IMG/VR virus record: IMGVR_UViG_2630968533_000009
Direction: 5' to 3' (one strand)
Length of the DNA: 16,383 bases
Source of the DNA: a virus
Taxonomy: Duplodnaviria > Heunggongvirae > Uroviricota > Caudoviricetes
The notes under the pieces are model-generated. The model was not told the origin of the DNA and searched no databases. It was given only the letters and a program-made list of their open reading frames with translations. Position numbers and translations under genes: made by a program. Below are positions 590-16,383 of this stretch, piece by piece; positions within the stretch are counted from its first letter, which is position 1; every line of letters starts with the position of its first letter.

Positions 590-829
590 TTATTTTTACC
601 TGTAGAGTAAAAAGATCGTTTCCCTCACAGTCGCTGACTTTCTTAAACAAACTTTAAAAATCAAATAACTATCGACTATTCCTACGATCCACCATCATCT
701 TTCCCCTGCATAATGACGCGCTTATTAGCCTGGTCACCTTTTGCTCTTTAATTGCTGAGTCGATTTATTAGCGGGCTTGTTCATTTATAGAGAATCTATT
801 TTTTAAACTTATTTATTAAAGCTTTTTTC

Positions 830-838
830 ATTCTTCAC
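830..838 (+). promoter_or_regulatory. Candidate late-promoter/activator element ATTCTTCAC, copy 1, 48 nt upstream of the 886 start
   Basis: Same 9-mer, preceded by TTAAAG/TTAAAAG, recurs at 2181..2189 upstream of the tail operon. A chance match is possible (roughly 1 in 10 for regions of this size). Confidence 0.25.
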
Positions 839-885
839 TGGCGGGTTCTGACGACACTAAACGCTCACTTATCAGGAGATATCGT

Positions 886-1173
886 ATGAAAAAAGTCACT
901 TTTCCCCGGCTTTCCGGCTGGCTAGTCGCTTCCGCCGCGCTGTTTGTCGTGATCGGCTGGACCTCTTCCGCACAGATCCCGGTCGTCATTTATAAACTAA
1001 GCCTGGTTTCGCTTTCCGCGGTGCTGGGATACTGGCTCGATCGCAGTTTGTTCCCCTGGGCACGGCCTGACTCTTTTAGCCCCTGGAAGGAACCTCGTTG
1101 CTGCGCGGCGGCAATGATTCGCCGCGCCATCATCGTTGCCGCCGTCTGTCTTTCCGTCGCCTTAGGGCTATAG
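886..1173 (+). CDS. Small membrane protein, putative holin
   Basis: 95 aa with AGGAG 8 nt upstream. Three hydrophobic helix-length segments (WLVASAALFVVIGW, LSLVSLSAVLGYWL, IIVAAVCLSVALGL). Sits immediately upstream of the lysozyme gene. Confidence 0.45.
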   Translation: MKKVTFPRLSGWLVASAALFVVIGWTSSAQIPVVIYKLSLVSLSAVLGYWLDRSLFPWARPDSFSPWKEPRCCAAAMIRRAIIVAAVCLSVALGL

Positions 1174-1175
1174 TG

Positions 1176-1781
1176 ATGTGGCTGAAATATATCGCGTCTA
1201 TGATTATTTTCGTTCTTTTCCCGCTTAACGCCTCTGAACCGCCGCGAGCCTCTCTGGCATGGCGAAACGAACTAATTCGTACAGCTCGAGAAGTCTGGGG
1301 GCTGAATGCTCCAGTGGCCGACTTTGCCGGGCAATTACACCAGGAGTCCGCCTGGCAGCCAATGGTACGTTCCCCCGTTGGCGCACAAGGTATGGCGCAA
1401 TTTATGCCTGCTACAGCGACATGGATAAGCCAGTTGTATCCACAATTGCGTGAAAACAAACCGTATAACCCAACCTGGGCGATTCGCGCGCTGGTGCAAT
1501 ATGACCAGCATTTGTGGAAAAACATCTCTGCGAAAAATGATTGTCAGCGTATGGCGTTTACCCTAAGCGCCTATAACGGCGGTCAGGGGTGGGTTAACCG
1601 GGATAAAAAACTGGCTGCATCCAAAGGGTTAGATGCCACTAGCTGGTTTGGTCATGTTGAGCAAGTCAACGCCGGGCGCAGCGCCACGAACTGGCGAGAA
1701 AATCGTCGCTATCCAAAGATGATCCTCTATCAACATGCCGCCCGCTATTTACTCTGGGGACAGGCAAGCTGTCTTCATTAA
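1176..1781 (+). CDS. Lytic transglycosylase (SLT-domain) endolysin with N-terminal signal or signal-anchor segment
   Basis: Motifs QESAW (catalytic Glu-Ser), GMAQFMP and AYNGGQG match the SLT family signature. N-terminal MWLKYIASMIIFVLFPLNA is hydrophobic. Start set at ATG 1176 just after the holin stop (1171..1173) rather than the track's 1098, which would overlap the holin. Confidence 0.85.
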   Translation: MWLKYIASMIIFVLFPLNASEPPRASLAWRNELIRTAREVWGLNAPVADFAGQLHQESAWQPMVRSPVGAQGMAQFMPATATWISQLYPQLRENKPYNPTWAIRALVQYDQHLWKNISAKNDCQRMAFTLSAYNGGQGWVNRDKKLAASKGLDATSWFGHVEQVNAGRSATNWRENRRYPKMILYQHAARYLLWGQASCLH

Positions 1782-1793
1782 TCAGAGGGGCCG

Positions 1794-2108
1794 ATGAAAC
1801 TCAGTATCGATTTTTGGGAAGTGATCTCCCTTATGCTTTCCTTCGTTGGATTAATGTTTGCTGCCGGAAAACTGCTGTTAGCACAAATTGAAAAACGACT
1901 TAATGAGCGTTTTGAGTCTCTGGAAAATGCCCGCAGGGAATCAGAAACAAGTTGGTCGAAACTGGAAAGAGAATTTCTCGAATTTCGTGCCGAGCTTCCG
2001 CTGCATTATGTCCGCAGAGAAGATTATCTTCGTGGGCAAGCAGTATTAGAAGCGAAGCTGGATGCCTTATATAGCAAAATCGAGCTGTTACAACGTGGCA
2101 GTTATTGA
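1794..2108 (+). CDS. Membrane-anchored coiled-coil protein, lysis accessory (possible i-spanin-like)
   Basis: 104 aa with GAGGGG RBS. One N-terminal transmembrane segment (ISLMLSFVGLMFAAGKLLL) followed by a charged helical region. Last gene of the lysis cassette; no partner lipoprotein ORF found. Confidence 0.35.
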   Translation: MKLSIDFWEVISLMLSFVGLMFAAGKLLLAQIEKRLNERFESLENARRESETSWSKLEREFLEFRAELPLHYVRREDYLRGQAVLEAKLDALYSKIELLQRGSY

Positions 2109-2110
2109 AA

Positions 2111-2145
2111 AATCCCCACCCTTATGTAAGGGTGGGGATTTTTTT
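2111..2145 (+). terminator. Rho-independent terminator after the lysis cassette
   Basis: Perfect 14-bp stem AATCCCCACCCTTA / TAAGGGTGGGGATT with a 3-nt loop, followed by seven T residues (2139..2145), directly after the 2108 stop. Confidence 0.8.
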
Positions 2146-2180
2146 AACCATTCAATTTTTTCTCTAAATCACATTAAAAG

Positions 2181-2189
2181 ATTCTTCAC
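2181..2189 (+). promoter_or_regulatory. Candidate late-promoter/activator element ATTCTTCAC, copy 2, 64 nt upstream of the 2253 start
   Basis: Identical 9-mer to 830..838 with the same AAAG-type upstream context, located between the terminator and the first tail gene. Confidence 0.25.
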
Positions 2190-2252
2190 CTTCGCTGCTT
2201 CAGAATACATTTCAACGATAACGAAGTGAGCGGTAATTAAGGTACAGCCTAT

Positions 2253-2708
2253 ATGGAAATTTTATCTGTAATGAATTCTGTTGTGACCAGATTACGTGAA
2301 CACAACTCCGAAATGGATATATTTATTTCATCTAAGGATGCCCAGAAATATATTCCACAGACACAACGAGTTGCAGTGATTATTAATTATAGCGGTTCTG
2401 TCTTTGCTACGCCCGAAAGCAGTAATGCCATCGTGCAACAGCAAATACTCCGCTTAACCGCCACCGTTATTGTTGGCAAAAATTGTGATGCATTAAACGC
2501 ACTTGATCACATACGCAGCGCATTGGGTGGCCTTCCGCTTCCTGATTGTGATCGTCTGCTTTGGCTTGAAAAAGAAATTAATACGGGTGAGAGCGGCGGT
2601 TTCTGCCGCTACATCCTGGAAATGGCGACCAGCTCGCTGTTTATCGCTGAACAGGAAAGCACGGATCTTCCCCTGCTTACGGAAGTTAACTACGAGGAAA
2701 CTGAATGA
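2253..2708 (+). CDS. Phage tail protein, Mu gp37-like (tail completion/terminator candidate)
   Basis: 151-aa ORF, first gene of the tail operon, stop overlaps the next start (ATGA). Assignment rests mainly on position two genes upstream of the sheath, as in Mu-like tails. Confidence 0.4.
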   Translation: MEILSVMNSVVTRLREHNSEMDIFISSKDAQKYIPQTQRVAVIINYSGSVFATPESSNAIVQQQILRLTATVIVGKNCDALNALDHIRSALGGLPLPDCDRLLWLEKEINTGESGGFCRYILEMATSSLFIAEQESTDLPLLTEVNYEETE

Positions 2709-2902
2709 AATACATCTACAACGGCCCAGCAAGCGGCGTCACCCTTGCCGATGGACAAGAAATCTTATTGTGGCCGAACAGTGAAATTGATCTGCCAGAA
2801 GACAACGAGTGGGTCATGACCATGATTGCCCGCAATCATCTGACTCCTGTCATCACTCAGGAAGAACAAAATAACGTAGAGGAAATTGTACATGGCAGCT
2901 AA
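2705..2902 (+). CDS. Small tail-associated protein preceding the sheath (DUF2635-like)
   Basis: 65-aa ORF translationally coupled on both sides. A small conserved gene in this position is typical of Mu-like tail clusters. Confidence 0.4.
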   Translation: MKYIYNGPASGVTLADGQEILLWPNSEIDLPEDNEWVMTMIARNHLTPVITQEEQNNVEEIVHGS

Positions 2903-4316
2903 TTATCTGCACGGTGTAGAAACTATTGAAATTGAAACCGGCCCGCGTCCGGTTAAAGCGGTAAAATCCGCCGTCATCGCTTTAATCGGTACATCCCCCT
3001 GCGGTCCGGTAAATAAACCAACATTATGCCTTTCTGAAAGCGATGCTGCGCAGTTTGGCTCGACTCAGGCTAACTTTACGATCCCACAGGCACTGAAGGC
3101 AATTTATGACCACGGTGCCGGTACGGTGGTGGTGATTAACGTGCTGGATCCGGCAAAACATGGCTCCAACATCAGCAATGAGAGTATCACTTTTGATGCT
3201 AACAACCAGGCGAAGCTCGCTCACCGCAATGTGCGTAACGTGGTACTAAAGCCCTCTTCATCAAATTCATCAACCTTTAACACCGCAGCATTTAGCGTAG
3301 ATGAACAAACAGGCATAATTACCCGTAAAGGAGCCGACATTCCTCCTGGTGCGAAAGTTTGTGCCTATTATTCCTGGTGCGACCCTACAAAGGTCACCGC
3401 AGCCGATATTATCGGTACCGTAAATACCGCAGGCGACCGCACGGGGATGAAACTCCTTCAGGACACCTATAACCTGTACGGTTTCTACGCCAAAATCCTG
3501 CTTGCTCCTGTGTTTTGTACGCAAAAATCGGTGACTACTGAGCTGATTGCACAAGCGGAAAAACTCGGTGCGATTACCTACATTGATGCCCCGATTGGGA
3601 CAACATTCCAGCAGGTATTGGCTGGACGCGGTTCGCAAGGGGCTATCAACTTCAATACCAGCTCTGATCGTGCGCGTTTATGTTACCCACATGTCAAAGT
3701 TTACGATGGCATCACTAACCAGGAAATTCTTGAGCCTCTCTCTTCGCGTGCTGCCGGGCTGCGTGCCAAAGTAGACCTCGAAAAAGGTTTCTGGTGGAGC
3801 AACTCAAACCAGGAAATTCAGGGTATTACCGGTATTGAACGTTCGCTTTCCGCAATGATTGATGATCCACAAAGCGAAGTGAATCAGCTCAACGAAAACG
3901 GCATTACCACTATTTTCAATAGTTACGGCTCTGGTCTGCGCTTGTGGGGTAACCGCACAGCGGCATGGCCTACCGTGACCCATATGCGTAACTTTGAAAA
4001 CGTCCGCCGGACAGGCGATGTAATCAATGAGTCAATCCGTTATTTCAGTCAGCAGTATATTGATATGCCGATTAATCAGGCACTTATTGACGCGCTGACC
4101 GAATCGGTAAATACCTGGGGCCGAAAACTGATTGCCGACGGCGCACTGCTTGGCTTTGAGTGCTGGTACGATCCGGCACGAAATTCACCGGCTGAACTCA
4201 GCGCCGGGCATTTATTGCTGAGCTATAAATTCACCCCGCCACCGCCGCTGGAACGTCTGACGTTTGAAACTGAAATTACTTCTGAATATTTAGTCTCTCT
4301 GGAGAGCAATAGCTAA
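2892..4316 (+). CDS. Contractile tail sheath protein
   Basis: About 474 aa. N-terminus MAANYLHGVETIEIETGPRP resembles the P2 FI / Mu L sheath N-terminus. ATG 2892 with GAGGAA RBS preferred over the track's TTG at 2886. Confidence 0.9.
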   Translation: MAANYLHGVETIEIETGPRPVKAVKSAVIALIGTSPCGPVNKPTLCLSESDAAQFGSTQANFTIPQALKAIYDHGAGTVVVINVLDPAKHGSNISNESITFDANNQAKLAHRNVRNVVLKPSSSNSSTFNTAAFSVDEQTGIITRKGADIPPGAKVCAYYSWCDPTKVTAADIIGTVNTAGDRTGMKLLQDTYNLYGFYAKILLAPVFCTQKSVTTELIAQAEKLGAITYIDAPIGTTFQQVLAGRGSQGAINFNTSSDRARLCYPHVKVYDGITNQEILEPLSSRAAGLRAKVDLEKGFWWSNSNQEIQGITGIERSLSAMIDDPQSEVNQLNENGITTIFNSYGSGLRLWGNRTAAWPTVTHMRNFENVRRTGDVINESIRYFSQQYIDMPINQALIDALTESVNTWGRKLIADGALLGFECWYDPARNSPAELSAGHLLLSYKFTPPPPLERLTFETEITSEYLVSLESNS

Positions 4317-4840
4317 TGGCTGGAAAAATTCAAATTAACCGTATTACCAACGCCAATATTTATCTCGATGGTAATAACCTTTTAGGTCGTGCAACAGAAA
4401 TTAAATTGCCGGATGTAAGTTTAATTATGCAGGAGCATAAAGCACTGGGCATGGTGGGTAAAATCGAACTCCCGGCAGGTTTCGATAAACTGGAGGGCGA
4501 AATTAAATGGAACTCCTTCTATCAGGACGTAATGCGTAAAACGGCAAACCCGTGGCAGGCGGTTGCATTACAGTGCCGCTCCAGTATTGATTGCTATAAC
4601 TCCCAGGGGAAAGCGAATCAATTAGCGCTAGTGACACATTTAACCGTGATGTTTAAAAAGAATCCACTGGGCACATTTAAACAGAATGAAAACCCGGAAT
4701 TCAGCAGCGCCTTTGGTTGCACTTATATTAAACAAGTAGTTGATGGTGAAACGCTGCTTGAACTTGATTATATGGCCAATATTTTCCGGGTTAATGGTGT
4801 GGATCAATTAAGTACCTATCGCAATAACATCGGTGGCTAA
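4316..4840 (+). CDS. Tail tube protein
   Basis: 174-aa ORF immediately after the sheath, start overlapping the sheath stop (TAATG). Size and position match P2 FII / Mu M-type tube proteins. Confidence 0.8.
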   Translation: MAGKIQINRITNANIYLDGNNLLGRATEIKLPDVSLIMQEHKALGMVGKIELPAGFDKLEGEIKWNSFYQDVMRKTANPWQAVALQCRSSIDCYNSQGKANQLALVTHLTVMFKKNPLGTFKQNENPEFSSAFGCTYIKQVVDGETLLELDYMANIFRVNGVDQLSTYRNNIGG

Positions 4841-4844
4841 GTTA

Positions 4845-4864
4845 TTCGGGGCTACGGCCCCGAA
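4845..4864 (+). other. RNA hairpin after the tube gene (8-bp GC-rich stem, 4-nt loop)
   Basis: TTCGGGGC-tacg-GCCCCGAA is a perfect inverted repeat 5 nt after the tube stop, with no long T tract. Likely an mRNA-stabilising or partial-termination element. Confidence 0.5.
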
Positions 4865-4890
4865 CTTTGCAAAATAAATAAGGACACAAA

Positions 4891-5208
4891 ATGAAAGAAC
4901 ATTATATCTTGCAGTTTCCATTTACGTCGGCAGCAGGAAATAATATCGACACGCTGCAATTACGTCGCCTGAAAGTAAAAGATATGCGCAACGCCCGCCG
5001 GATCAGCGAAAAGCCAGAAGAGTGGGATGAACCGCTGATGGCGGCGATGACCGGACTGGTGCCAGAAGATTTAGCCGAAATGGATTTGCTGGATTACCAG
5101 GCATTGCAGAAACGATTTCAATCCATGCTTACCGTGGTTACAGAATCCTCCCCTGCTATGGCAGGCAATGGCGCTACTGGCGAGATGGTTTCGCTTTCCG
5201 CCCAGTGA
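4891..5208 (+). CDS. Tail assembly chaperone (gpE/gpG-like)
   Basis: 105-aa acidic ORF between tube and tape measure, the conserved chaperone position. AAGGA RBS. Confidence 0.5.
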   Translation: MKEHYILQFPFTSAAGNNIDTLQLRRLKVKDMRNARRISEKPEEWDEPLMAAMTGLVPEDLAEMDLLDYQALQKRFQSMLTVVTESSPAMAGNGATGEMVSLSAQ

Positions 5209-5282
5209 GATAGACGCCCTTACCGTCGATGACTTTAGCAACTGGCTGGATGAAGCCAGCGCCCAAATAAAAATCGAATATG

Positions 5283-5307
5283 ACTCGCAGACCTGATGTC
5301 TGCGAGT
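5283..5307 (+). other. Hairpin in the chaperone-tape measure spacer (10-bp stem, 5-nt loop)
   Basis: ACTCGCAGAC-ctgat-GTCTGCGAGT is a perfect inverted repeat. It covers the stop of the +1-frame extension of the chaperone. Confidence 0.5.
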
Positions 5308-5397
5308 TTCCCAAGCCCGTCAGGTTTATTTCTTCCCTGCCCCTTTTTTTAGAAAAATAACCAGCGGGCCATTATCAATATTTAAAGAGAAACAATT

Positions 5398-7773
5398 TTG
5401 GCCAACGATATTATTACCCAGCTTCAGGCGCGTAATGAGACGTTGACGCAGGCAATAGCCCGTTACGGCTCACTCAACGCCAGAACATTGTTAACTCTCT
5501 CTACTCAGCAGGCGACAGTTATCAAACTAACGCAGCAGCTTGCCGATTCCGCTCTCCGCCTGGAGGAAAATAGCCGCAGCCGCGCTAATCTGATGGAGAA
5601 AACCCAAACATTTGCCGGGCAATTTAGCAAAGTATTCAATGTTGAAGCCCCCGACTGGAAGTTGCCGTATGAGTTTCAGGACAACATGGTCAATATGGCG
5701 ACCAAAGGTGGGATGAATGCTACAACCCGCGAGACGCTCAGCCTTAATCTGCGCGACTGGAGCATGGATTTTAACCAGCAGCAGACCACCTTACAGAACG
5801 CAGCCCAAACGCTGATCGAAGGCAATTTGTCGTCGATGCAGGATCTCAACCGTTATATGCCGGAGATCGCCAAAGCTGCCACCGCCACGCGCGAAAGTGC
5901 TGAAACGTGGGCGAATGCCGCGCTCGCGACTCATGATCGACTGAATATTGCCCCGGAAAATTTCCACGCCGCGCAAAACATGATGTACGGCATTAGCAAA
6001 AGCGGTGGGCCTGCCATTGCTGAACAAACGCAGTGGATAGAGAAATTTGCAGGTAAAACCGGCGCTCAGGGTCTGGAAGGTATGGCTGAACTGACTGCCG
6101 CCATGCAGATCGCAATGAAAAATGGGGCCAGCGCCAGTGCGGCGGCGGAGAATTTTGACCACTTTCTGCAAACCACCTTTTCGAAAAAAACCGATAGCTG
6201 GTTCGCCAGCCAGGGCGTCGATCTGCAAGGCTCTCTGCTTGAACATCAGCAAAACGGTATGGGTGTTAGCGAAGCCATGACTCATATCGTACAAATGCAG
6301 CTTGAGAAGATGAACCCGGCGATCCTCGACACCTTCAAACGTACTATGCAGATTGAAGATTTATCTGCTCGCAGCAATGCGCTGCAATCGATGGTGTCGC
6401 AATTTAATCTGGGCGAAATGTTCGGCGATGTGCAAACGGTGGAATTCCTGGCACCTATGCTGGCGAATATGGAGGAATATCGCCAGTTAAAAGCCTCTGC
6501 CATGCAAGCCACCAGCAAGAATCTGATTAACGCTGACTTTTCTGCGCAAATGGCCTCGCCCATTGAACAGACTAAAGCGTTACAGCTGGCATTAAATGAT
6601 TTATGGCTCAGCATTGGTTTGCAGCTTATGCCGGCGATTGGCGAGCTGGCACAAAGCCTTACGACGGTTATTCGCCAGTTCAGCGCCTGGCTACGCGAAC
6701 ATCCGGCGCTGGTGCAAAACATTGCGAAAATCGTCGGGGCGGTTTGGCTGTTTAACGGCGCGCTGAATGTTTTAAAGCTGGGCGCGAACCTCATCACCTC
6801 GCCGTTTATTCGTCTGGTCGATATCTTCCTGAAAGTCAAGGCAAGTCTGGCGCTCACAGGCGGGGCAAGTAAGATGCTATCAGCGGTTAAGTCATTGGGT
6901 GGCGGCGCAAAATGGCTAATGCAACTGCTTGGTCGTGGCCTGATTGGCGCACTGAAACAGGTAGGTCAGACCGTCTTCTGGTTGGGTAGGGTTTTATTGA
7001 TGAATCCCATTGGTCTGGTCATCACTGCGATTGCGGGCGCTGCTTATCTGATTTGTCGCAACTGGGAGCCTATCTCCAGGTTCTTTTCGACCATCTGGCA
7101 ACGTATCACCACGGCCTTTGACGGCGGCATTGCAGGAATTTGTCGGTTGATTCTCGACTGGTCACCGCTGGAGTTGTTCTATAGCGCCTTTTCCAGTGTG
7201 ATGAATTGGTTTGGTGTCGAGATGCCTGCAAGTTTTAGCGAGTTCGGCAGCAATCTTCTGGGCAGTCTGGTTGACGGCATAATGAATGCCTTCCCCGCTC
7301 TGAAAGGCATTATTGATCAGGTAAAAAACGCCATCCCAGACTGGCTAAAAACCACGATGGGTATTAGTACAGAAGGATCGGCTACAGCTATTACAAGCAC
7401 GACTAATACCGCATCCGTCTCCCCCGCGACCGTTGTTCCAGGCGTTGCCGGTGCGATTTTAACACCGCCGGTGGGCAAACAACTCGCGCCATCCGGCAAA
7501 ACGGCTACGCCGTCATCGGCGCCAGCGGCAAAAAATACAGCCGCCAAACCCGTATCTGCCTCTTTACCTGGTAAATCCGTAACCAAACCGGCGACGCTAC
7601 CCTCCCGTTCCTCAGGAAAAGTCCAGGTAAATTTTTCGCCACAAATTACCGTGCAGGGTAACGGACAAAACACCACTAAAGAGATTCAGAACGTGTTGAC
7701 GATGAGTAAACGCGAACTGGAAAGAATGATTAACGATGTAATGGCGCAGCAGCAGCGCCGGGGGTATGCCTGA
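5398..7773 (+). CDS. Tail tape measure protein
   Basis: 791 aa: helical N-terminal region, long central hydrophobic/Gly-rich section, Ser/Thr/Pro/Ala-rich C-terminal segment. Start appears to be TTG at 5398 (no in-frame ATG before an upstream TAA), so the start is less certain than the call. Confidence 0.85.
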   Translation: MANDIITQLQARNETLTQAIARYGSLNARTLLTLSTQQATVIKLTQQLADSALRLEENSRSRANLMEKTQTFAGQFSKVFNVEAPDWKLPYEFQDNMVNMATKGGMNATTRETLSLNLRDWSMDFNQQQTTLQNAAQTLIEGNLSSMQDLNRYMPEIAKAATATRESAETWANAALATHDRLNIAPENFHAAQNMMYGISKSGGPAIAEQTQWIEKFAGKTGAQGLEGMAELTAAMQIAMKNGASASAAAENFDHFLQTTFSKKTDSWFASQGVDLQGSLLEHQQNGMGVSEAMTHIVQMQLEKMNPAILDTFKRTMQIEDLSARSNALQSMVSQFNLGEMFGDVQTVEFLAPMLANMEEYRQLKASAMQATSKNLINADFSAQMASPIEQTKALQLALNDLWLSIGLQLMPAIGELAQSLTTVIRQFSAWLREHPALVQNIAKIVGAVWLFNGALNVLKLGANLITSPFIRLVDIFLKVKASLALTGGASKMLSAVKSLGGGAKWLMQLLGRGLIGALKQVGQTVFWLGRVLLMNPIGLVITAIAGAAYLICRNWEPISRFFSTIWQRITTAFDGGIAGICRLILDWSPLELFYSAFSSVMNWFGVEMPASFSEFGSNLLGSLVDGIMNAFPALKGIIDQVKNAIPDWLKTTMGISTEGSATAITSTTNTASVSPATVVPGVAGAILTPPVGKQLAPSGKTATPSSAPAAKNTAAKPVSASLPGKSVTKPATLPSRSSGKVQVNFSPQITVQGNGQNTTKEIQNVLTMSKRELERMINDVMAQQQRRGYA

Positions 7774-8726
7774 TGTATGCCGTTTTAGGAGAGATTGAAT
7801 TTAAGGTTGTCACATTCTGGGACGGCTTTAAAAGCACAATGGGCGTGGATTACGCCACACATGCCCGTATAGAAGGCAAACCCGGCGTGCAGTTTATTGG
7901 CGATAAGCTGGATATGCTGGCGCTGGAATTTTCCCTGCACAGCCAGTTTTGCCAGCCCACAACAGAGCTGAACCGACTGCGTGAAGCCATGCTTGCTCAC
8001 AAGGCGATGGCACTGGTATTTGGCAATGGCGATTATCGCGGCTGGTTTGTGATTACGGAGCTAACCGCCACCCACCAGCACACCGATCCCTGGGGCAATG
8101 TGATTGCCCAAAACGGAACGATGTCGCTCCAGGAGTACACCGGCGATCCTAAAAATCCACTTTTACCTCCGGCGATTACCACCCAGGAGCCCAACATCGA
8201 GGAAAAGGCGAGCGATTTTCCCGACAAGGTGGAGTCCTGGTTTGATCAGATATTAAACGCCATCGAAGAAGGTATGCGTAAGGCCAAAGAGATGCTGGAT
8301 GAACTGACACAAGCCATTGAAGATATTAAAAAAACGGTGGCAAAAGTGAAAGCAATGATTAAAGAGGCCAAAGCGTTAAAAGAAAAGTGTGAAAAGATAA
8401 TTACGTCATTGAAAAAGACAATCGACGCCATCGAAACCCTGTTTAAACAGCCAATGGATCTGCAAACGCTGGCAGGACTCCCAAAAGCGTTGTCGGCGCA
8501 GATTAAAACTTTACTGGGTAACATGCCAGGTATCCGGGACTGCGCCAATGACGCCAGTACACTGGTTGACCATGCTCAGGCGCTTTTCGACGACATTACC
8601 AGCGACATCGCCGAAGCGACGTTTGATAAAGCCGCAACGTTGGTTGATCAGGCACGAACAACGGTACAACAAACCACTCCCACAGTGAGCCAGCTTGCTG
8701 CCGCGACCATTACGAGGATCTGGTGA
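7773..8726 (+). CDS. gpU-like tail protein with a long C-terminal coiled-coil extension
   Basis: N-terminal ~130 aa (MYAVLGEIEFKV ... DY ... FIG ... LALEF ... GWFVITE) follows the pattern I recall for P2 gpU. The C-terminal ~185 aa are Lys/Glu/Ala-rich and heptad-like. Start overlaps the tape measure stop (ATGA). Confidence 0.6.
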   Translation: MYAVLGEIEFKVVTFWDGFKSTMGVDYATHARIEGKPGVQFIGDKLDMLALEFSLHSQFCQPTTELNRLREAMLAHKAMALVFGNGDYRGWFVITELTATHQHTDPWGNVIAQNGTMSLQEYTGDPKNPLLPPAITTQEPNIEEKASDFPDKVESWFDQILNAIEEGMRKAKEMLDELTQAIEDIKKTVAKVKAMIKEAKALKEKCEKIITSLKKTIDAIETLFKQPMDLQTLAGLPKALSAQIKTLLGNMPGIRDCANDASTLVDHAQALFDDITSDIAEATFDKAATLVDQARTTVQQTTPTVSQLAAATITRIW

Positions 8727-8935
8727 TGCGATACCTTGAACATATCACCACCGACGGCGAACGCTGGGATAATCTGGCATGGCATTACTACGGTGATGCG
8801 CTGGCTTATGAACGCATAATCGCCGCCAATCCACATGTAGCCATTTACCCGGTACTGCCTTCCGGTATTCAGCTCATTATTCCGGTCATTTCCGTCAATA
8901 AAACCTTATCGGAGATCCCACCATGGCTGAGATAA
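8726..8935 (+). CDS. Tail protein X (gpX-like)
   Basis: About 70 aa with GD/ER-WD ... YYGD ... ANP ... LPSG pattern resembling P2 gpX. ATG 8726 overlaps the upstream TGA; GTG 8723 is an alternative start. Confidence 0.7.
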   Translation: MRYLEHITTDGERWDNLAWHYYGDALAYERIIAANPHVAIYPVLPSGIQLIIPVISVNKTLSEIPPWLR

Positions 8936-9963
8936 GCGTAACTGGTGGCGTCTTTGCCACACTCACGCCCATTTTTACCCTCTGGTATGGGCATAAAGAT
9001 ATCACTTATGACATCACACCCTATGTCACCAGCATCAGTTACCACGACAGCATCAAAAACGAGTCGGATACCATCGCAATTACACTGGATGACACAGATG
9101 GACGCTGGATAAAAGAGTGGTATCCCGGCAAAGGCGATACGCTGGCGCTGCATATGGGTTATCAGGGAGAGAAGCTGCTCGATTGTGGTCAGTATATTAT
9201 TGATAAAATTGATATTTCAGCGCCACCTTCTACGGTAAATATTGATGGCATCGCCACTTCCGTCAATCAGGCGCTGCGCACCCGTAACAGCCAGGGTTTT
9301 GAAGAAACGACGCTTTCGGCTATCGCCAGCCGTATCGCACAAACTCACGGCCTAAAGCTGGTGGGCAAAATCGAGCCTCTGACAATTGACCGGGTGACAC
9401 AGTACGGCGAAACCGATGTTGGATTTCTCAAACGTCTGGCCAGTGAATATGGTTATGCCGTAAAAGTGACGACGAAAGAGCTGATTTTTTCACATTTACC
9501 CACGCTGCGCTGCCTGGCACCTGTGAAAAAGATCGACCGCAAAGACGTTTCGCATTTCACCTTCAAAGATACCATTAACCGTATCTACAAAAACGCCACC
9601 GTACAGCATCAAAATAGTAAGAAAAAAGAACTGGTTATCTACACTCACAACAGCCAGCAAAAACCGTCTGCCCGTGGAGTCGGCACCAGTGCCGACACGC
9701 TAAAACTGAACAGTCGGGCGACGGACGTTGGCGCAGCACAGGCAAAAGCCAACGCTGCACTCGACAGCCACAACGAATATCAGCAAACCGGAACGCTCAC
9801 AATGATGGGCTGCCCGGAACTGACGGCGGGCAATAAAATCGAGCTAACCGATTTTGGCGTGCTTTCCGGTCAATGGCTAATTGATAAATCGACTCACAGT
9901 TTTGTGCGCAGCGGCTATACCACTGAAATCGACGTGTCGCGCGGGCCAGCGACCAGCCAGTAA
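8923..9963 (+). CDS. gpD-like tail/baseplate hub protein
   Basis: 346 aa with DDTDG, TTLSAIASRIAQTHGLKL and ETDVGFLKRLA motifs matching the P2 gpD / Mu P family as I recall it. Confidence 0.85.
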   Translation: MAEISVTGGVFATLTPIFTLWYGHKDITYDITPYVTSISYHDSIKNESDTIAITLDDTDGRWIKEWYPGKGDTLALHMGYQGEKLLDCGQYIIDKIDISAPPSTVNIDGIATSVNQALRTRNSQGFEETTLSAIASRIAQTHGLKLVGKIEPLTIDRVTQYGETDVGFLKRLASEYGYAVKVTTKELIFSHLPTLRCLAPVKKIDRKDVSHFTFKDTINRIYKNATVQHQNSKKKELVIYTHNSQQKPSARGVGTSADTLKLNSRATDVGAAQAKANAALDSHNEYQQTGTLTMMGCPELTAGNKIELTDFGVLSGQWLIDKSTHSFVRSGYTTEIDVSRGPATSQ

Positions 9964-9972
9964 GGAGGAAAT

Positions 9973-10674
9973 ATGAAAGGAGTAACCCGTCAAACGGGGA
10001 TTATCAGCGATATTGACGAAACCAGCGTTCGGGTGCGGGTCACGCTCCCGGAGTGTGACAATCTGAAGAGCAACTGGCTTGCGGTACTTCAACGCAATTC
10101 CCAGGACAATAAAGACTACTGGCTACCGGATATGGGCGAGCAAGTGGAAGTTCTGCTGGACAATAACGGTGAAGATGGCGTGGTGCTGGGCGCAGTTTAT
10201 TCTACGGTTGACACCGCGCCTGTAGCCTCGCGCGACAAACGTTACGTCCAGTTTTCTGATGGCGCAGCGTTTGAATATGACCGCAGCACGCACCAGCTGA
10301 CGATCAACGGCGGTATCGAGAAAATCGTGATTGAGGTTATCAACGGTACCTGCCTGACATCGCCCAACGTTGAGATTAAAGCCCAACAGGTCACCGTGAC
10401 TTCCGATACCGTCGATGTTAAAGCGACCGATGTCAGCATCGACGCCACTAAGGTCGAGGTTAAAGCAGCAGCAGTGACGGTAGATGCGCCCATGAGCACC
10501 TTTACTGGCAACGTCACGGTAATGAAAAAACTCACCTGGCTTGGCGGGATGGCAGGAAGTGGAGGCATCGGTAACGCAGCCACGATAACCGGCAATGTCA
10601 ACGTGATCGGCAACGTTCAGGCCAGCGGCGCATTGCAGGACAGCGGTGGCAACTCCAACCACCATTCACACTGA
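9973..10674 (+). CDS. Baseplate central spike (gpV-like)
   Basis: 233 aa with a strong RBS (AAGGAGG). N-terminal domain followed by a Val/Thr/Ala-rich beta-helix-like repeat region and a His-rich C-terminus (NHHSH). Confidence 0.8.
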   Translation: MKGVTRQTGIISDIDETSVRVRVTLPECDNLKSNWLAVLQRNSQDNKDYWLPDMGEQVEVLLDNNGEDGVVLGAVYSTVDTAPVASRDKRYVQFSDGAAFEYDRSTHQLTINGGIEKIVIEVINGTCLTSPNVEIKAQQVTVTSDTVDVKATDVSIDATKVEVKAAAVTVDAPMSTFTGNVTVMKKLTWLGGMAGSGGIGNAATITGNVNVIGNVQASGALQDSGGNSNHHSH

Positions 10675-10679
10675 CGTTT

Positions 10680-10708
10680 AACCCGCCTGATGGCGGGTTT
10701 TCTCTTTT
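10680..10708 (+). terminator. Terminator-like hairpin between gpV and gpW genes
   Basis: AACCCGCC-tgat-GGCGGGTT (8-bp stem) followed by T-rich TTCTCTTTTT, inside the 98-nt gap between the two genes. Confidence 0.5.
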
Positions 10709-10772
10709 TAATCAATCAGTTTTCTAAATCGCTTTAATATCTCCACAGCCCGTTCAGGGCGAAAATACCCTC

Positions 10773-11132
10773 ATGAACACAAAAACACGCCCCTCAACGC
10801 TGCACTGGCAACCGGCCTTGCTGCGGCCTGAAGAATACGTCTGCGGACTGGATGATATTCACCAGGCAATACACATCATTCTGCGTACACCGCGCGGCAG
10901 TGATCCCCACAGACCGCTGTTTGGCAGCAACTTGTGGCACTACATCGATTACCCCATCGAGCGGGCTATCCCGCATGTGGTACGGGAGTCGGTGGAAGCC
11001 ATCCGCCAGTGGGAACCGCGCTGTCGGTTGCTGAAGGTGACACCAGTAATCGACGGCGAACATCTGACGTTACGTGTGCAATGGCGCGCCGCTGACGGCG
11101 TTATCAACTCAACGGAGGTGTTATGGCGATAG
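10773..11132 (+). CDS. Baseplate wedge protein (gpW/gp25-like)
   Basis: 119 aa with IHIILRTPRGS ... FGSNL ... WEPR pattern matching the gpW/gp25 family. Confidence 0.8.
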   Translation: MNTKTRPSTLHWQPALLRPEEYVCGLDDIHQAIHIILRTPRGSDPHRPLFGSNLWHYIDYPIERAIPHVVRESVEAIRQWEPRCRLLKVTPVIDGEHLTLRVQWRAADGVINSTEVLWR

Positions 11133-12100
11133 CCGAACCCAATTTTATTGACCGCGATCCTGCGCAAATTACCAGTGAGATGATTGCGCAATACGAAGAT
11201 GCCAGTGGTAAAAAACTCTATCCGGCACAGGCTGAGCGGTTGCTCATCGACCTGTTTGCCTATCGTGAAAACCTTGTACGCATCGCCATTCAGGAAGCGG
11301 CGAAACAAAACCTGGTCGCGTATTCCCGCGCGCCAATGCTGGATTATTTAGGAGAGCTGGTGGGCGTTCACCGTTTGCCTGCGCAGCCAGCAAAAACGAC
11401 GTTGCAGTTTTCGGTCGTCAGTGCGTATACCAGCAATATCCTGATTCCCCAGGGGACGCGGGCCAGTGCCTCTGATAGCGTGATGTTCGCCACCGATGAA
11501 GATGTTCTGCTTCCGGCCTGGAGTTTGCATATCGCCGTTCCTGCCACCAGCCTCGCAGCAGGTGAACAGGGTAACGGCTGGCAGCCTGCACAAATTAGCG
11601 CTCTGGTCGACAGGATTGGTCATTATGACATCAACGTAACCAACCTGACTGCGTCAACGGGCGGCTGCGGTGAAGAGAGCGATGACGCATTGCGCCAGCG
11701 TATCCAACTGGCACCAGAAAGCTTTAGTAATGCGGGCAGCTATGGCGCATACCGCTTTCATACGCTTTCTGTTAGCCAGTCGATTATTGACGTTGCAGTA
11801 CTGGGGCCGGACGAGGGATTGCCAGAAGGCTGCGTGGAGATCTACCCGCTAACGCTGTTTACCACCGCCGATCAGGAGACAACGCTGGCTGCGGCGCGTA
11901 AAGCGATTAGCCTCTGGACGCAACAGCGGCAGAAACATCTGGGGCAAGACATTGTGCCAAACCAGATAATCAAAGTGTTACAGGTCGATGGCGTCTATGA
12001 CGTTGCGCTGAACTTGCCTACAAAACGTATTTTGCAGGCGCATGAATGGGCGGAATGCACTGCAATAGACGTCACGATCGCCGGAGTTAGCGATGGATAA
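11123..12100 (+). CDS. Baseplate J-like protein
   Basis: 325 aa immediately after the gpW-like gene with overlapping start. Size and order match P2 gpJ / Mu baseplate J. Confidence 0.85.
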   Translation: MAIAEPNFIDRDPAQITSEMIAQYEDASGKKLYPAQAERLLIDLFAYRENLVRIAIQEAAKQNLVAYSRAPMLDYLGELVGVHRLPAQPAKTTLQFSVVSAYTSNILIPQGTRASASDSVMFATDEDVLLPAWSLHIAVPATSLAAGEQGNGWQPAQISALVDRIGHYDINVTNLTASTGGCGEESDDALRQRIQLAPESFSNAGSYGAYRFHTLSVSQSIIDVAVLGPDEGLPEGCVEIYPLTLFTTADQETTLAAARKAISLWTQQRQKHLGQDIVPNQIIKVLQVDGVYDVALNLPTKRILQAHEWAECTAIDVTIAGVSDG

Positions 12101-12809
12101 ATTGCTACCACCGCCGCCGCTTGCCAGCGATGAGCGTTTTTCGATTCTGGCAAATATCGCCGCCGAGCGTTTTGCCCAACTCGATCTGACGGCGTTGATG
12201 GTTTATCTGGTCGACCTGGTTGATGCTTCGGCATTACCAGCCCTTGCAGAACAATTTCACGTTCAGGGGTTGGAAGGTTGGTTATTTACCACCGATGAGC
12301 GGGAGAAACGCGAGTTAATTAAACAAGCCATTGAACTGCATAAATATAAAGGAACAATTTGGGCGGTGCGGCGGGTGCTGGAAATACTCTCCTTACCCGG
12401 AACTATTTCAGAATGGTTTGAATATGGGGGAAGGGCTTACTTTTTTAAGGTTGATATTACACTAGAGGAAAAAGGATTAAATGAAGATGAATTCAATGCA
12501 CTTATCACATTAATTCATGAATATAAAAATGTCCGTTCAAAGCTGGAAAGCATTGTTATTTGGCTTATTAATCGAAGCCCAATACCAGTTATTGGCAGTG
12601 CCATGCAAGGAGGGGAAGTCATTACAGTATTGCCTCCTGTTGCAGAAAGCCTCAGCCAGTCATCTGGAATATTTTTAGCGACAGGTTATTGTGTGGAGGA
12701 ATATATTCAACTACTACCTTATCAACCCGATCGACTAACACAATCCCAACCGATGAAGGTCGGCACAGGATACTGGAGCACCGAAATTATGTCTGTATAT
12801 CCGGAGTAA
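12093..12809 (+). CDS. gpI-like baseplate protein with extended low-GC C-terminal region
   Basis: N-terminus [16 protein letters not shown] is typical of the P2 gpI family. At 238 aa it is longer than P2 gpI, and the C-terminal part (about 12420..12720) is visibly AT-rich. Confidence 0.7.
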
Positions 12810-12812
12810 TAA

Positions 12813-14422
12813 TGGCAAGTGAATTTTTTACAATATTAACTGCTGCAGGCAAAGCCAAAATTGCCTCAGCACTGGCCGAGCAAAAACAGATCCGTCTGCA
12901 AACTATGGTAGTTGGCGACGGTAATGGTAAATATATCGAACCGACAGAAAGTCAGACCAAAGTAGTCCATGAGGTCTGGCGTGGTCAGCTCAATACATTA
13001 AAAATTGCGCCAGATAATCCGGCCTGGGTTATCGCAGAAGCGATTATTCCCGAACAAGTCGGAGGCTGGTATGTACGCGAAGTTGGGTTACTGGATACCG
13101 ACGGCACGATGGTCGCTATTGGTAAATTCCCGGAAACCTATAAGCCACGATTACCTGCGGGGGCCAGTAAGCAAATCGTTATACGCGCGGTCATGGAAGT
13201 CACCAATGCAGATGCGGTGACGCTTTTGATCGACCCTTCAGTCGTTGTGGCAACCAGGGAATATGTCGATGACGCGTTGAAAACACATCAGCAATCACGA
13301 AATCATCCTGATGCGACGCTGACACAAAAAGGTTTTACGCAGCTGAGTAATGCGACTAATAGCGATGATGAAACCAAAGCGGCCACGCCAAAAGCGGTAA
13401 AAACGGCATATGACCTGGCAAATAGCAAAGCTGCCACCAGTCATAATCATGCCTGGAATCAGATTACTGGTATCCCTGATGGTACACTGACGCAGAAAGG
13501 AGTCGTTAAGCTTAACAATACAACAAATAGCACCAGTACGACGGAAGCTGCAACACCAAGTGCGGTTAAGGCAGCGATGGATAAGGCTATTGCTGCGGCA
13601 CCGTCCAGCCATACCCATGCCTGGGGGCAAATAACAGGTATCCCCGACGGTACGCTGACGCAAAAAGGGGTCGTGAAACTTAATAATGCGACCAACAGCA
13701 CCAGTACGACGGAAGCTGCAACGCCGAACGCTGTTAAGGCAGCGATGGATAAGGCTATTGCTGCGGAAAGCTGTCCTGTTGGGATGCCTATTCCCTGGCC
13801 ATCTGATTCTGTACCTTCAGGCTACGCTCTGATGACAGGTCAGACATTTAATAAAACCTCCTATCCCAAACTGGCAATTGCATATCCATCTGGTGTTATT
13901 CCTGATATGCGCGGATGGATAATTAAAGGAAAACCATCCAGTGGGCGCGCTATATTATCTACTGAACTGGATGGAGTTAAATCACATAACCATACGGGCA
14001 GTATTTCGAGTACGGACTTAGGGACGAAATCTGTATCATCAATAGATCTAGGAACAAAGAACACTCAGTCATTTAATCATGGGATAAAAACAACAAATAC
14101 AGCAGGCGCGCATAGCCATGATAGTGGTTCTGGCGAAAGTAGTGAGGGGGGAAAACCTCGGTATGGTACTCGTGATAACACAACAAATAATTTTGGTTCT
14201 GGTGAATCAGATCATGACAATTACAAATTTAACACATCCACGGATGGAGAGCATGCACATTCAGTTAATGTTGGCTCACACTCTCACTCTGTTATTTTAG
14301 GGTCACATAATCATTCAATTGCCCTTGGTTCCCATAATCACTCCCTAACCATTAATAATACCGGCAACACCGAAAACACCGTCAAAAATATCGCATTCAA
14401 CTATATTGTGAGGCTAGCATGA
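12813..14422 (+). CDS. Tail fiber protein
   Basis: Conserved Mu S / P2 H-type N-terminal domain, three internal fiber repeats, collar-like segment ([11 protein letters not shown] ... [12 protein letters not shown]) and HxH-rich tip. Start set at ATG 12813 after the gpI stop; the track's 12689 start is an upstream in-frame extension. Confidence 0.85.
13306..13766 (+). repeat. Tandem tail-fiber repeats (about 56 aa / 168 nt period, three copies)
   Basis: Copies 2 and 3 (13469..13598 and 13637..13766) are near-identical in nucleotide sequence, differing mostly at synonymous positions. Copy 1 (from about 13306) is more diverged. Protein motif TLTQKG-x-LNNxTNS ... EAATP-x-AVK-x-A-x-D. Confidence 0.7.
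14264..14344 (+). repeat. Three tandem 27-nt repeats encoding x-x-x-G-S-H-x-H-S
   Basis: GTTAATGTTGGCTCACACTCTCACTCT / GTTATTTTAGGGTCACATAATCATTCA / ATTGCCCTTGGTTCCCATAATCACTCC, in frame within the fiber C-terminus. Confidence 0.7.
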
Positions 14423-15126
14423 ATACTTTTACCTTTTCCGATGAAGCTCAAATACTAACTGTATATAATTTTTCACAAGACTCCCAAGAATATATCGGTG
14501 AGTCTGATGCATACATTGCACCTAATACAGGCTTGCCAAATTATTGCACATTAATTTCACCTCCCGAAAAGGTTCCTGGTTTTACTCCAGTGTGGGAGAA
14601 TGAAACATGGAGACTTATTGAAGATCATCGAGGCCAAACTGTTTATAACAAAGTTGATGGTAGCCAGCTTATTATTCAAGAATTGGGCCAATTACCTGAA
14701 AATGTAACAGTCATTTCCCCGACAGGTTCTTTTGAACGTTGGGATGGTGAAAAATGGCAACCATCTATAACCGATGCTAAAGAGGCGAAATACTCTGCAA
14801 TCAAAAATCAACGCGATGCCATCACAACCGATTACATCATCATCAACAACCATCACTTCCACAGTGATACAAATAGCCGTATCCAACAGCTTTCACTCAC
14901 AAAAATGGGAGCGGAGAAAAAAATTCCGCCAGGTTTAATGTGGAAAACTAAAAATAATGGTCTGATTGAGTTAACCAACGAAATCGCTGCCCAGTTTGAA
15001 TCGGTCACCATGGATCACGATATGCGCTTGTTCGCAAACGCCCAGCGTCATATCGCGGCGGTGGAAGCACTGGACGATATTCAGGCGGTGCTCGACTACG
15101 ATTATTCAACAGGCTGGCAACCATGA
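14419..15126 (+). CDS. Tail fiber assembly chaperone (Tfa-like)
   Basis: 235-aa ORF directly after the fiber with ATGA start/stop overlap. AT-rich N-terminal two-thirds and a normal-GC C-terminal about 45 aa ending [10 protein letters not shown]. Confidence 0.6.
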
Positions 15127-15578
15127 GTAAAACCACTGTCTGGCTCGCTTGTTATAAGGGCCGAACAGAGCACCGTGGTATTGCCCGACTGGCTGACTGG
15201 CTTACCCGTAAAATCACACGCGGTCATTATTCCCACTGTGAATTAGCCGTTAAGCATGGTGAAAAGAGATACCTTTGTTACTCTGCATCACTGCGCGATC
15301 GCGGTGTACGCGGAAAGATAATGCCATTGCCAGCGGATAAGTGGGATATGCTGCCGCTCCAGGCTAGCCTTCAGGATGTGGAAACTTTTTTCCGTAAACA
15401 TGATGGCAAAAAATATGACTGGCGCGGAGCATTAGGAATTATTACCGGTAATAAAGAACAGCGCGATCGCCTGTTTTGCAGTGAATTTTGTGCTGAATTT
15501 CTGCAACTGAAGGAAAGCTGGCGCTATTCTCCAAACCACTTGTACGCTTTAGTCAGCAGCTGGCAATACCAGCAATAA
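15123..15578 (+). CDS. Hypothetical protein, possible LRAT / permuted NlpC-P60-like thiol hydrolase (accessory gene)
   Basis: 151-aa ORF translationally coupled to the fiber assembly gene (ATGA). Motifs YSHCELAV ... KHG and LFCSEFCAEF resemble the His ... His ... Cys order of that fold, from memory only. No signal peptide. Confidence 0.3.
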   Translation: MSKTTVWLACYKGRTEHRGIARLADWLTRKITRGHYSHCELAVKHGEKRYLCYSASLRDRGVRGKIMPLPADKWDMLPLQASLQDVETFFRKHDGKKYDWRGALGIITGNKEQRDRLFCSEFCAEFLQLKESWRYSPNHLYALVSSWQYQQ

Positions 15579-15583
15579 ATCAC

Positions 15584-15602
15584 GCCGGGCTTTATGCCCG
15601 GC
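15584..15602. terminator. GC-rich hairpin between convergent genes (possible bidirectional terminator)
   Basis: GCCGGGC-tttat-GCCCGGC, 7-bp all-GC stem, 6 nt after the 15578 stop and overlapping the stop of the minus-strand gene. Confidence 0.5.
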
Positions 15603-16383
15603 ACATTACCGTTTGATACAGCAAATTATCTAGCTCCCGAACATCTCCATCTCGACTGTCCGGTAAAATCGGTGGAATTTCCCCGCGCGCCAGTTCCGCG
15701 CGAATAAACGCATGCAATAAAGGACGGCGCAGTCCATATTCCGCTTCACTCGCACGCTGTTTACGCTCCAGCAATTCATCTATTTCTGCGCGTAAGGCCG
15801 CATCCAACTCACTTCCCGCCAGTAACTCGGCAAAGCGCATTGGCGGCACGCCTTTTCCCGCTTCAACCCAGCGTACGGCCAGCAGCGGGCGCAGCACGTA
15901 AAAGTATTTTTTCAGTCGAACTTCGTCGCCCTGTAAATAACCGCGAAAGTTTTTCTGCGCCATCGAATAGTAATGCCAACGCGCGCGCAACGAAGAAAAC
16001 CACATTGGGACCATTGCCTTAAGCGCCGTTATCGTTTCTTCATCTTGTTGATAGACCACCGGAGAATCCAGCCATTCTATCAGCGTCGGATTCGCGCCTT
16101 TCAATAATCCCAGCGCCTTACGCCACTCCCAACCGGAAACATCTAACTCGTCGTCGATAGGCAGTTCGATAACATCGCGCGGTGACTCTACACGCAGATA
16201 CCATTCTAGCGGATGGACATACAAAAACCGTACATCGTAGTCGCTATCGGGCGAGGCAAATCCCCAGCCGCGGCTGCCTGATTCACAGGCGTACAGCACT
16301 TTCACGCCATAGCGACGTTCTATTTCTTTTAACTGCTGCGATACCCGTTCGCGCATCGCAGCACTGACTCCATTTAATGGCAT
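15592..16383 (-). CDS. Nucleotidyltransferase (Pol-beta superfamily), probably outside the tail locus
   Basis: N-terminal ESGSRGWGFASPDSDYDVRF matches the GS-x(n)-D-x-D nucleotidyltransferase signature. ATG lies exactly at the window end (16381..16383), so the true start may be upstream. Convergent with the tail operon. Confidence 0.6.
   Translation of the reverse strand: MPLNGVSAAMRERVSQQLKEIERRYGVKVLYACESGSRGWGFASPDSDYDVRFLYVHPLEWYLRVESPRDVIELPIDDELDVSGWEWRKALGLLKGANPTLIEWLDSPVVYQQDEETITALKAMVPMWFSSLRARWHYYSMAQKNFRGYLQGDEVRLKKYFYVLRPLLAVRWVEAGKGVPPMRFAELLAGSELDAALRAEIDELLERKQRASEAEYGLRRPLLHAFIRAELARGEIPPILPDSRDGDVRELDNLLYQTVMCRA

Follow-up and report, generated by a model that had tools for sequence, protein, structure and literature searches.

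A permuted NlpC/P60-type cysteine enzyme translationally coupled to tail-fiber chaperones in phages and chromosomal tail clusters

The window analyzed here, a 16,383-nucleotide stretch of DNA filed as the IMG/VR virus record IMGVR_UViG_2630968533_000009 (Caudoviricetes), carries a tail-fiber module with a small cysteine enzyme encoded at its end. The tail fiber gene (12812–14422, plus strand; start according to RefSeq) specifies by Pfam a tail-collar N-terminus, fiber repeats, and a collar domain. The tail-fiber assembly or chaperone gene that follows (14419–15126, plus strand) combines an N-terminal Caudo_TAP domain (E 3.3e-7) with a C-terminal DUF4376 domain (1.9e-14) and matches PHROG 1807, 105, and 2837. 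A preliminary description, made from the sequence alone, had placed behind it a 151-aa gene sharing an ATGA overlap with the assembly gene. This open reading frame (ORF) at 15123–15578 on the plus strand is real, as are the overlap and the Caudo_TAP/DUF4376 partner: the start codon of the enzyme (15123–15125) overlaps the TGA of the chaperone gene (15124–15126; caaccATGAgt), and through this ATGA stop/start overlap (15123–15126, plus strand) the two genes, chaperone and enzyme, are translationally coupled. The product is a basic protein of 151 aa and 17.8 kDa (isoelectric point 9.5) that ends in SSWQYQQ; its RefSeq counterpart, WP_022646406.1, is titled "hypothetical protein".

Directly 3′ of the enzyme stop codon lies a GC-rich hairpin (15581–15605; −17 kcal/mol, z −3.05), a terminator-like site between the enzyme gene and a convergent gene for an RlaP-family (PF10127) nucleotidyltransferase (15592–16383, minus strand). 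The hairpin probably terminates transcription from both sides and closes the tail operon. A crude sigma-70 consensus scan of the window returned no promoter-like site on the plus strand after 13306, which, together with the hairpin behind the stop codon, makes the enzyme gene the final cistron of the operon. Its GC content is 0.46–0.51, versus 0.39–0.43 across the 3′ half of the fiber gene and the chaperone gene, in agreement with the earlier remark that its composition is normal, unlike that of the preceding cassette.

The preliminary description had likened two motifs, YSHCELAV...KHG and LFCSEFCAEF, to the permuted active site of LRAT or NlpC/P60-type enzymes. Both are present in the translation. 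Direct scans of the window protein gave no Pfam match at E≤1 and no NCBIfam match, and a phmmer search of the PDB gave a sub-threshold match to 3kw0, a "cysteine peptidase", in which both motifs were aligned. With a profile of 49 homologues, 3kw0 was matched at E 8e-5 and YiiX (2if6) appeared as well; a profile built from 89 more diverse representatives matched the same two structures at E 3.7e-4 and 0.054, respectively, with aligned blocks at YSH, (D)DGVR or DGGVR, GKxYD, and CSE. In a profile–profile comparison, hhalign of the 89-sequence family alignment against a 24-sequence YiiX alignment gave a probability of 93.1% and E 3.2e-7 over 94 columns, pairing His with His, Tyr with Tyr, and Cys with Cys. 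An AlphaFold2 model of the enzyme reached a pLDDT of 86.3 and a pTM of 0.83, and BFVD matches include phage proteins annotated as "YaeF/YiiX C92 family" (E 8e-5) and "cysteine peptidase". The two points on which the fold proposal had been made to depend, similarity to the papain-like NlpC/P60 fold and conservation of the putative catalytic Cys and His, are thus both borne out, the former by 3kw0 and YiiX and the latter by the invariance of both residues, and of the signature Tyr, in the 89 representatives.

The catalytic set of permuted NlpC/P60 enzymes comprises a Cys, a His, a polar third residue, and a signature Tyr whose role at the oxyanion or P1 carbonyl has been described (PMC3142127). 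Across the 89 representatives, H38, E40, G61, W74, Y98, and C119 are invariant, S120 and E121 as well as Ser56 and Asp59 are at least 90% conserved, and C39 and C123 are not invariant; Cys119 and His38 are also invariant in the 49-sequence alignment. The stretch HYSHCELAVKHGEK is present in the window protein, with His38 encoded at 15234–15236 and the His38-Cys39-Glu40 codons of its YSHCE motif (cac tgt gaa) at 15234–15242 on the plus strand. The YSH triplet pairs with YSH in YiiX and with SH in BcPPNE, His38 falling on the catalytic His of these enzymes (His49 in Xu et al., PMC3142127), and residues 38–44 form the β-strand that holds His38 in the predicted model. Tyr98 (tat, 15414–15416, plus strand), in the motif GKKYDW, aligns with the Tyr of YiiX "GKPYD" (Tyr114 by precursor numbering, Tyr115 in the numbering of Xu et al., PMC3142127). 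RLFCSEFCAEF, present in the window protein, contains Cys119 (15477–15479); the Cys119-Ser120-Glu121 codons (tgc agt gaa, 15477–15485, plus strand) align with CSE of both YiiX and BcPPNE, and Cys119 opens the helix 119–126 in the model. We conclude that the window enzyme has a permuted papain-like fold with an invariant His38/Tyr98/Cys119 set in which His precedes Cys. Neither a hydrophobic segment nor a signal peptide was found in it (maximum KD19 hydropathy 0.14), and 88 of the 89 family members likewise have no hydrophobic segment, one member having one. By its sequence, the enzyme is a soluble, cytoplasm-made protein without export signals.

YaeF/YiiX-like permuted NlpC/P60 enzymes correspond to MEROPS C92 and Pfam PF05708. 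E. coli YiiX (2IF6) and Bacillus cereus BcPPNE (3KW0) share with the window enzyme the catalytic order His, Tyr, Cys. They differ from it in several respects: YiiX has an N-terminal signal peptide (start MKNRLLILSLLVSVPAFAW), which the window enzyme does not have; YiiX is a housekeeping chromosomal gene, whereas the window enzyme occurs in a phage tail-fiber context; and the canonical Glu of YiiX-type enzymes is replaced by Ser or Ala in the window family, which has in addition a new invariant Glu at His+2. Weak matches to PF05708 occur in 2/49 and 2/89 relatives, with a best E of 1.6e-4. Since the link to the PF05708 group appears at the profile–profile level alone (93%), the enzyme belongs to a sister or outlying family and not to the current one. 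We place it as a distinct family of the permuted NlpC/P60 superfamily, nearest to the YaeF/YiiX branch, for which there is no current Pfam model.

Other branches of the superfamily are more distant. Structural similarity to the LRAT/PLAAT (H-RAS-like suppressor) acyltransferase-phospholipases is lower than that to YiiX, and the likeness to LRAT drawn in the preliminary description holds for the permuted His-before-Cys order but not for LRAT-type details: the window enzyme has no NCEHF-type Cys box (FCSEF instead), no second His as a third residue in the manner of His...His, and no PLAAT-type C-terminal membrane anchor. TseH and Tox-Act1, permuted NlpC/P60 phospholipases of type VI secretion systems (T6SS), belong to a different clade and are linked to VgrG or PAAR; unlike them, the window enzyme comes without an immunity gene, secretion adaptor, or fusion, and is linked to a fiber chaperone. 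LnsA is secreted and requires the membrane partner LnsB, and RID is a domain of the large MARTX toxin, whereas neither an LnsB-like partner nor a RID-like toxin fusion was seen for the window enzyme.

The window enzyme matches PHROG 1128 at E 2.7e-58, tblastn matches concur, and both represent the same family. PHROG 1128 and many GenBank records of the family are labeled "enoyl-CoA hydratase". We reject this assignment to the enoyl-CoA hydratase (ECH)/crotonase group, as the enzyme gives no ECH Pfam match at E≤1 and no NCBIfam match and has a papain-like fold. Records that carry the label include SuMu gp51 (4944–5465 in the excerpt), Pm86 ORF70 (5001–5456 in the excerpt), and RP12 (NC_041911), and it has reached downstream analyses such as the gene list of a genome-wide association study of Haemophilus parasuis virulence (PMC4532294). 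A 2025 preprint on the Alicyclobacillus phage MMB025 reported that HHpred related a PHROG 1128 member to phospholipases and cysteine peptidases. Both the superfamily and its chemistry had been described before; the family, in contrast, is unmodeled and mislabeled, with an altered triad and no export signal. Our searches of the literature on YiiX/YaeF, DUF4376, STM4198, and permuted NlpC enzymes with tail fibers found no functional study of the family, and conserved translational coupling to tail-fiber chaperone genes was not found in the literature searched.

The family is large. A word-indexed search returned 89 homologues of the window enzyme, and a profile run exhaustively against 1.84 billion cluster representatives returned 4,471 at E≤1e-3, or 1,940 when the cutoff was E≤1e-10, corresponding to a family of ~4,470 clusters at 50% identity. 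Nearly all members are single-domain proteins of 135–180 aa. Pairwise dN/dS between the window gene and enterobacterial alleles is 0.04–0.15, and the gene is under purifying selection; together with the homologues and the hairpin behind the stop codon, this identifies it as more than a chance ORF. About 25 of 50,697 phage records carry the family, all with proteobacterial hosts. We dropped the notion of a family restricted to Gram-negative hosts, since a PHROG 1128 member has been reported in an Alicyclobacillus phage. Among 12 longer members inspected for domain fusions, nothing informative was found except one C-terminal lipobox-like extension (LALAGC), in a 227-aa member (P0202); it is possibly a fused downstream lysis (spanin) gene.

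The order of genes ahead of the enzyme recurs in phages of different types. In the Mu-like myovirus SuMu, the fiber module runs gp49, gp50, enzyme gp51, followed by com and a methylase. The enzyme gene likewise follows the fiber and assembly genes in Pasteurella phage Pm86, in Moraxella Mcat phages, and in Pseudomonas stutzeri phage pAN (5444–6447 region of the excerpt), and Acidovorax phage AP1 has the order fiber, Tfa, enzyme, holin, lysozyme (5053–6081 region of the excerpt). In a P2-like metagenomic contig the enzyme lies between the fiber module and the sheath gene, and a giant-fiber cluster shows the same fiber–assembly–enzyme order. For a copy in a Ralstonia jumbo phage, the neighbors are unannotated.

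For a systematic view, we took a census of neighbors at 80 IMG/VR loci, of which 78 were usable, found with the closer of the two family alignments. An upstream same-strand ORF of ~160–295 aa overlaps the enzyme start in 56/78 loci, with the 4-nt type of overlap in 45, and is separated from it by 0–3 nt in a further 18/78, so that the two genes overlap or lie within 3 nt in 74/78; after de-replication at 70% identity, the arrangement is kept in 24/27 clusters. These upstream ORFs match DUF4376 (40/78), Caudo_TAP (16/78), PHROG 2837 (55/78), and PHROG 105 "tail fiber assembly" (31/78). DUF4376 proteins are experimentally studied fiber chaperones in Alteromonas phages (PMC10579305). The pairing of chaperone and enzyme is thus conserved across Mu-like, P2-like, and siphovirus-type elements. 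Downstream genes are heterogeneous, comprising DNA methyltransferases (20/56), sheath, glycosyltransferase, and others; in 12/78 loci the contig ends within 200 nt past the enzyme gene, and none of the census loci revealed a conserved downstream partner or immunity-like gene.

A comparison of close relatives separates the enzyme from the genes to which it is coupled. Between E. coli D7 and the window, the fiber is 46%, the chaperone 50%, and the enzyme 96% identical; in GF130 the fiber tip differs from that of the window and the enzyme is 95% identical. Overall, the enzyme remains 94–96% identical where fiber and chaperone have been swapped, and within three independent clusters of at least 90% enzyme identity the upstream ORF falls to 50–52%. 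A low-GC cassette (0.39–0.43) at about 13850–15050 covers the fiber 3′ half and the chaperone, and its flanks are 94–100% identical between E. coli strains. The identity pattern and the GC step together indicate that a fiber–chaperone cassette has been exchanged ahead of a constant enzyme gene. The swapped cassette marks a hotspot of recombination, and the chaperone/enzyme junction forms one of its edges. Constancy of the enzyme during fiber exchange argues against a receptor-specific role, and we regard receptor-specific immunity, one version of the function suggested in the preliminary description, as unlikely, given that the enzyme does not co-vary with the fiber. The proposed framing as moron or cargo is also unsupported: with no promoter-like site of its own, coupling to a chaperone in most of the 78 loci, and a backbone-like GC content, the gene encodes a coupled fiber-module enzyme and is not a classic moron.

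Taken as a whole, the data are best explained, at a probability of roughly 0.55, by a soluble permuted papain-like enzyme made in the cytoplasm that would use acyl-thioester chemistry on a lipid-type substrate and serve a general role in the fiber module. Cys119, activated by His38 as base, would form a covalent acyl-thioester, Tyr98 would stabilize the oxyanion, and Glu40, at His+2 on the same strand face, may replace the missing canonical Glu. RID and PLAAT proteins are acyltransferases, RID of MARTX being an N-epsilon fatty acyltransferase. YiiX was crystallized with a fatty acid, and PPNE proteins have hydrophobic S1 pockets (PMC3142127); Tox-Act1 and TseH are phospholipases (PMC12994826), and LnsA of Staphylococcus aureus takes part in lipoprotein N-acylation (PMC7387801). 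Because these relatives act on or bind acyl groups, the acyl group would by analogy most likely be a fatty acyl on a lipid, lipoprotein, or lipopolysaccharide (LPS)-type substrate, rather than peptidoglycan. The enzyme would be made late, roughly in step with the fiber chaperone, and would be active either inside the cell that makes it or, after the holin has opened the membrane, on the envelope. Canonical endolysins reach the envelope only after holin action, and a late enzyme lacking a signal would similarly arrive there only post-holin, or else work in the cytoplasm. Its job would be general to fiber-bearing particles and not tied to one receptor.

Several observations weigh against this interpretation or narrow it. 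PF05708 (Peptidase_C92) gives no match to the window protein at E≤1, a Foldseek search of the PDB yielded nothing significant, and the window enzyme is ~40–50 residues shorter than YiiX and BcPPNE. The canonical third residue, Glu64/Glu63 of YiiX/BcPPNE, aligns with Ser54/Ala55; the invariant, family-specific Glu40 is a candidate that may stand in for it, and the third triad residue has been described as possibly dispensable in LRAT and as a water in PPPDE1 (PMC3142127). The censused loci are the closest relatives, are partly redundant, and are biased towards close relatives, which bears on all frequencies of the chaperone pairing given above. Finally, the lipid substrate is proposed by analogy, and the tight chaperone coupling fits a protein substrate, fiber or cap, equally well.

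A protein substrate, with the enzyme processing or uncapping the fiber–chaperone complex, is accordingly the main rival. As a fiber-maturation peptidase, the enzyme would cut the DUF4376 chaperone cap off the fiber tip or set it free, or else trim the fiber, and thereby be the counterpart in trans of the Peptidase_S74 intramolecular chaperone domains that act in cis. The coupling in 74/78 loci and 24/27 clusters speaks for this, as does the upstream chaperone being the sole constant neighbor; DUF4376 chaperones have been proposed as transient caps resembling intramolecular chaperone domains (PMC10579305), the fiber cluster of one relative, that with the giant fiber, also holds a Peptidase_S74-like gene, and peptidases and amidases occur among papain-like Cys/His/Tyr enzymes, BcPPNE having been crystallized with a bound amino acid (PMC3142127). 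Of all the readings, this one accounts best for the coupling, but it fits poorly with the lack of co-variation: with the enzyme 94–96% constant against 50% for the chaperone and 46% for the fiber, a specific protein substrate would need to lie in a conserved part. Moreover, many phages with DUF4376 or Caudo_TAP chaperones do without the enzyme, which only ~25/50,697 phage records carry, and fatty-acyl compounds are the preferred substrates of the characterized permuted NlpC/P60 enzymes (PMC3142127, PMC12994826). We consider maturation by a peptidase unlikely. Slightly less probable still is a broader conjecture, that tail fibers or DUF4376/Tfa caps undergo enzymatic maturation in which the co-translated thiol enzyme acylates, deacylates, or proteolytically uncaps the receptor-binding tip.

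The remaining alternatives move the site of action away from the fiber. Receptor-masking genes such as T5 llp and lambdoid cor are found at the end of the fiber module, which is where the enzyme gene sits, and the gene might similarly protect the host by altering LPS, a lipoprotein, or a lipid, giving superinfection exclusion, self-immunity, or less sticking to debris. In 12/78 loci the gene lies no more than 200 nt from the contig end, which puts it at the prophage edge, permuted NlpC/P60 enzymes handle lipids (PMC3142127, PMC12994826), and the same elements carry surface-modifying genes (gtrABC in the Salmonella cluster, a glycosyltransferase downstream in locus L019). We nonetheless find such protection doubtful: the lack of its own promoter-like site and its coupled late-operon translation imply that the gene would be silent in a lysogen, the protein has neither a signal peptide nor a membrane segment, the enzyme is unchanged when fiber specificity changes, and its GC content is backbone-like and not foreign. 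Rather doubtful as well is an effector or toxin that travels on or inside the tail into the target cell, in the manner of T6SS TseH and Tox-Act1. The contractile-tail cluster is related to T6SS-like machines and the enzyme is co-expressed with tail parts, but there is no adjacent immunity gene, downstream genes being heterogeneous or absent, and no PAAR, VgrG, or tape-measure fusion, almost all members being single-domain proteins of ~150 aa; the enzyme also occurs in siphovirus-type phages, and gp51 is not among the 20 SuMu proteins reported by mass spectrometry, which is weak evidence.

Bacterial Bil-type systems are reported to tag phage tail-fiber proteins, and a PPPDE/DeSI-like isopeptidase or deconjugase that frees tail proteins of such a host modifier, a ubiquitin-like tag for instance, would be a counter-defense. 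Retention of the gene in chromosomal tail-only clusters and the absence of any defense-related PADLOC match render this quite improbable. Hardly more credible, and if anything less so, is a non-catalytic accessory protein in which the conserved His, Glu, and Cys bind metal or are structural only. His38, Glu40, and Cys119 could form a metal site, a few members give weak matches to metallothionein and zf-FCS models, and the title of entry 2if6 names YiiX a "metalloprotein"; set against this are the full NlpC/P60 signature, including the invariant Tyr98, aligned with the catalytic residues of YiiX and BcPPNE, and the variability of the other cysteines, C39 and C123.

With the permuted NlpC/P60 assignment, "hypothetical protein" and the wrong "enoyl-CoA hydratase" label can be replaced and catalytic residues named that can be mutated. 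The assignment ties a large family to tail-fiber chaperone genes across phage morphotypes and in domesticated E. coli and Salmonella tail clusters. Fiber modules are engineered to retarget phages and tailocins, and a co-translated enzyme could affect the yield or activity of engineered fibers. If the enzyme does act on envelope lipids or the fiber, the assembly, release, or adsorption of particles would gain an enzymatic step that is new; fiber maturation by a thiol enzyme, if true, would be a previously unrecognized, widespread assembly stage in phages and tailocins.

The whole window (1–16383) is identical to stretches of E. coli chromosomes, for example at NZ_CP042896 4473726–4491379, where the cluster is flanked on one side by lysC and on the other by an RlaP/slipin pair, which alone separates it from yjbD; rluF is also found beyond the pair. 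Its front holds genes for a Mor activator, a holin, an SLT transglycosylase, and a membrane protein; tail genes follow for a gp37-like protein, sheath, tube, and tape measure, then the baseplate genes gpU-like, X, D, V, W, J, and I, and finally fiber, chaperone, and enzyme. Head, replication, and integrase genes are absent from the window and all of its ORFs are intact; the cluster looks like an old, domesticated, tailocin-like element. The enzyme gene is present in 202/5,426 complete E. coli genomes, adjoined every time by a DUF4376 gene. Salmonella LT2 has an orthologous cluster, STM4198–STM4219, in the same chromosomal neighborhood, followed by yjbD, rluF, and metH, in which STM4198 is the orthologue of the window enzyme (78% identity). 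In that cluster a gtrABC O-antigen glucosylation operon (STM4204–4206; 10748–13583 in the excerpt) is inserted between baseplate V and W, and a hexapeptide acetyltransferase gene stands after the enzyme gene; both are missing from the E. coli window.

Further observations concern genes outside the fiber module and unusual copies of the enzyme gene. A slipin-family gene on the minus strand lies downstream of the RlaP gene (17990–19117 in the NZ_CP042896 excerpt). The RlaP gene was matched in 1,629/5,426 E. coli genomes, the majority without the tail cluster, and PADLOC gave no match for the enzyme, RlaP, or slipin proteins. The lysis cassette of the window (886–2108) comprises the holin (886–1173), the SLT transglycosylase (RefSeq start 1176), which has an N-terminal hydrophobic segment, and a 104-aa protein that resembles an i-spanin, with a transmembrane segment followed by a predicted helical region; no lipobox ORF was seen in the cassette as an o-spanin candidate. 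The intergenic stretch that separates the holin from the divergent Mor gene (349–885) is AT-rich and of low complexity and is probably a regulatory or late-promoter region; an 89-aa ORF in it, at 388–657, looks non-coding. In AP1 and pAN, holin or lysis genes come directly after the enzyme gene. An orphan copy, 58% identical (6001–6444 in the excerpt), occurs on the alphaproteobacterial chromosome of Candidatus Tokpelaia, between ETF/ETF-QO genes and an FAD-binding monooxygenase gene, with no phage genes within 6 kb. IMGVR_UViG_3300008717_000135 holds two diverged enzyme copies a few kb apart (excerpts 6004–6465 and 6004–6492), each with a chaperone-like ORF of its own no more than 3 nt upstream, an arrangement that suggests two complete fiber modules on this element.

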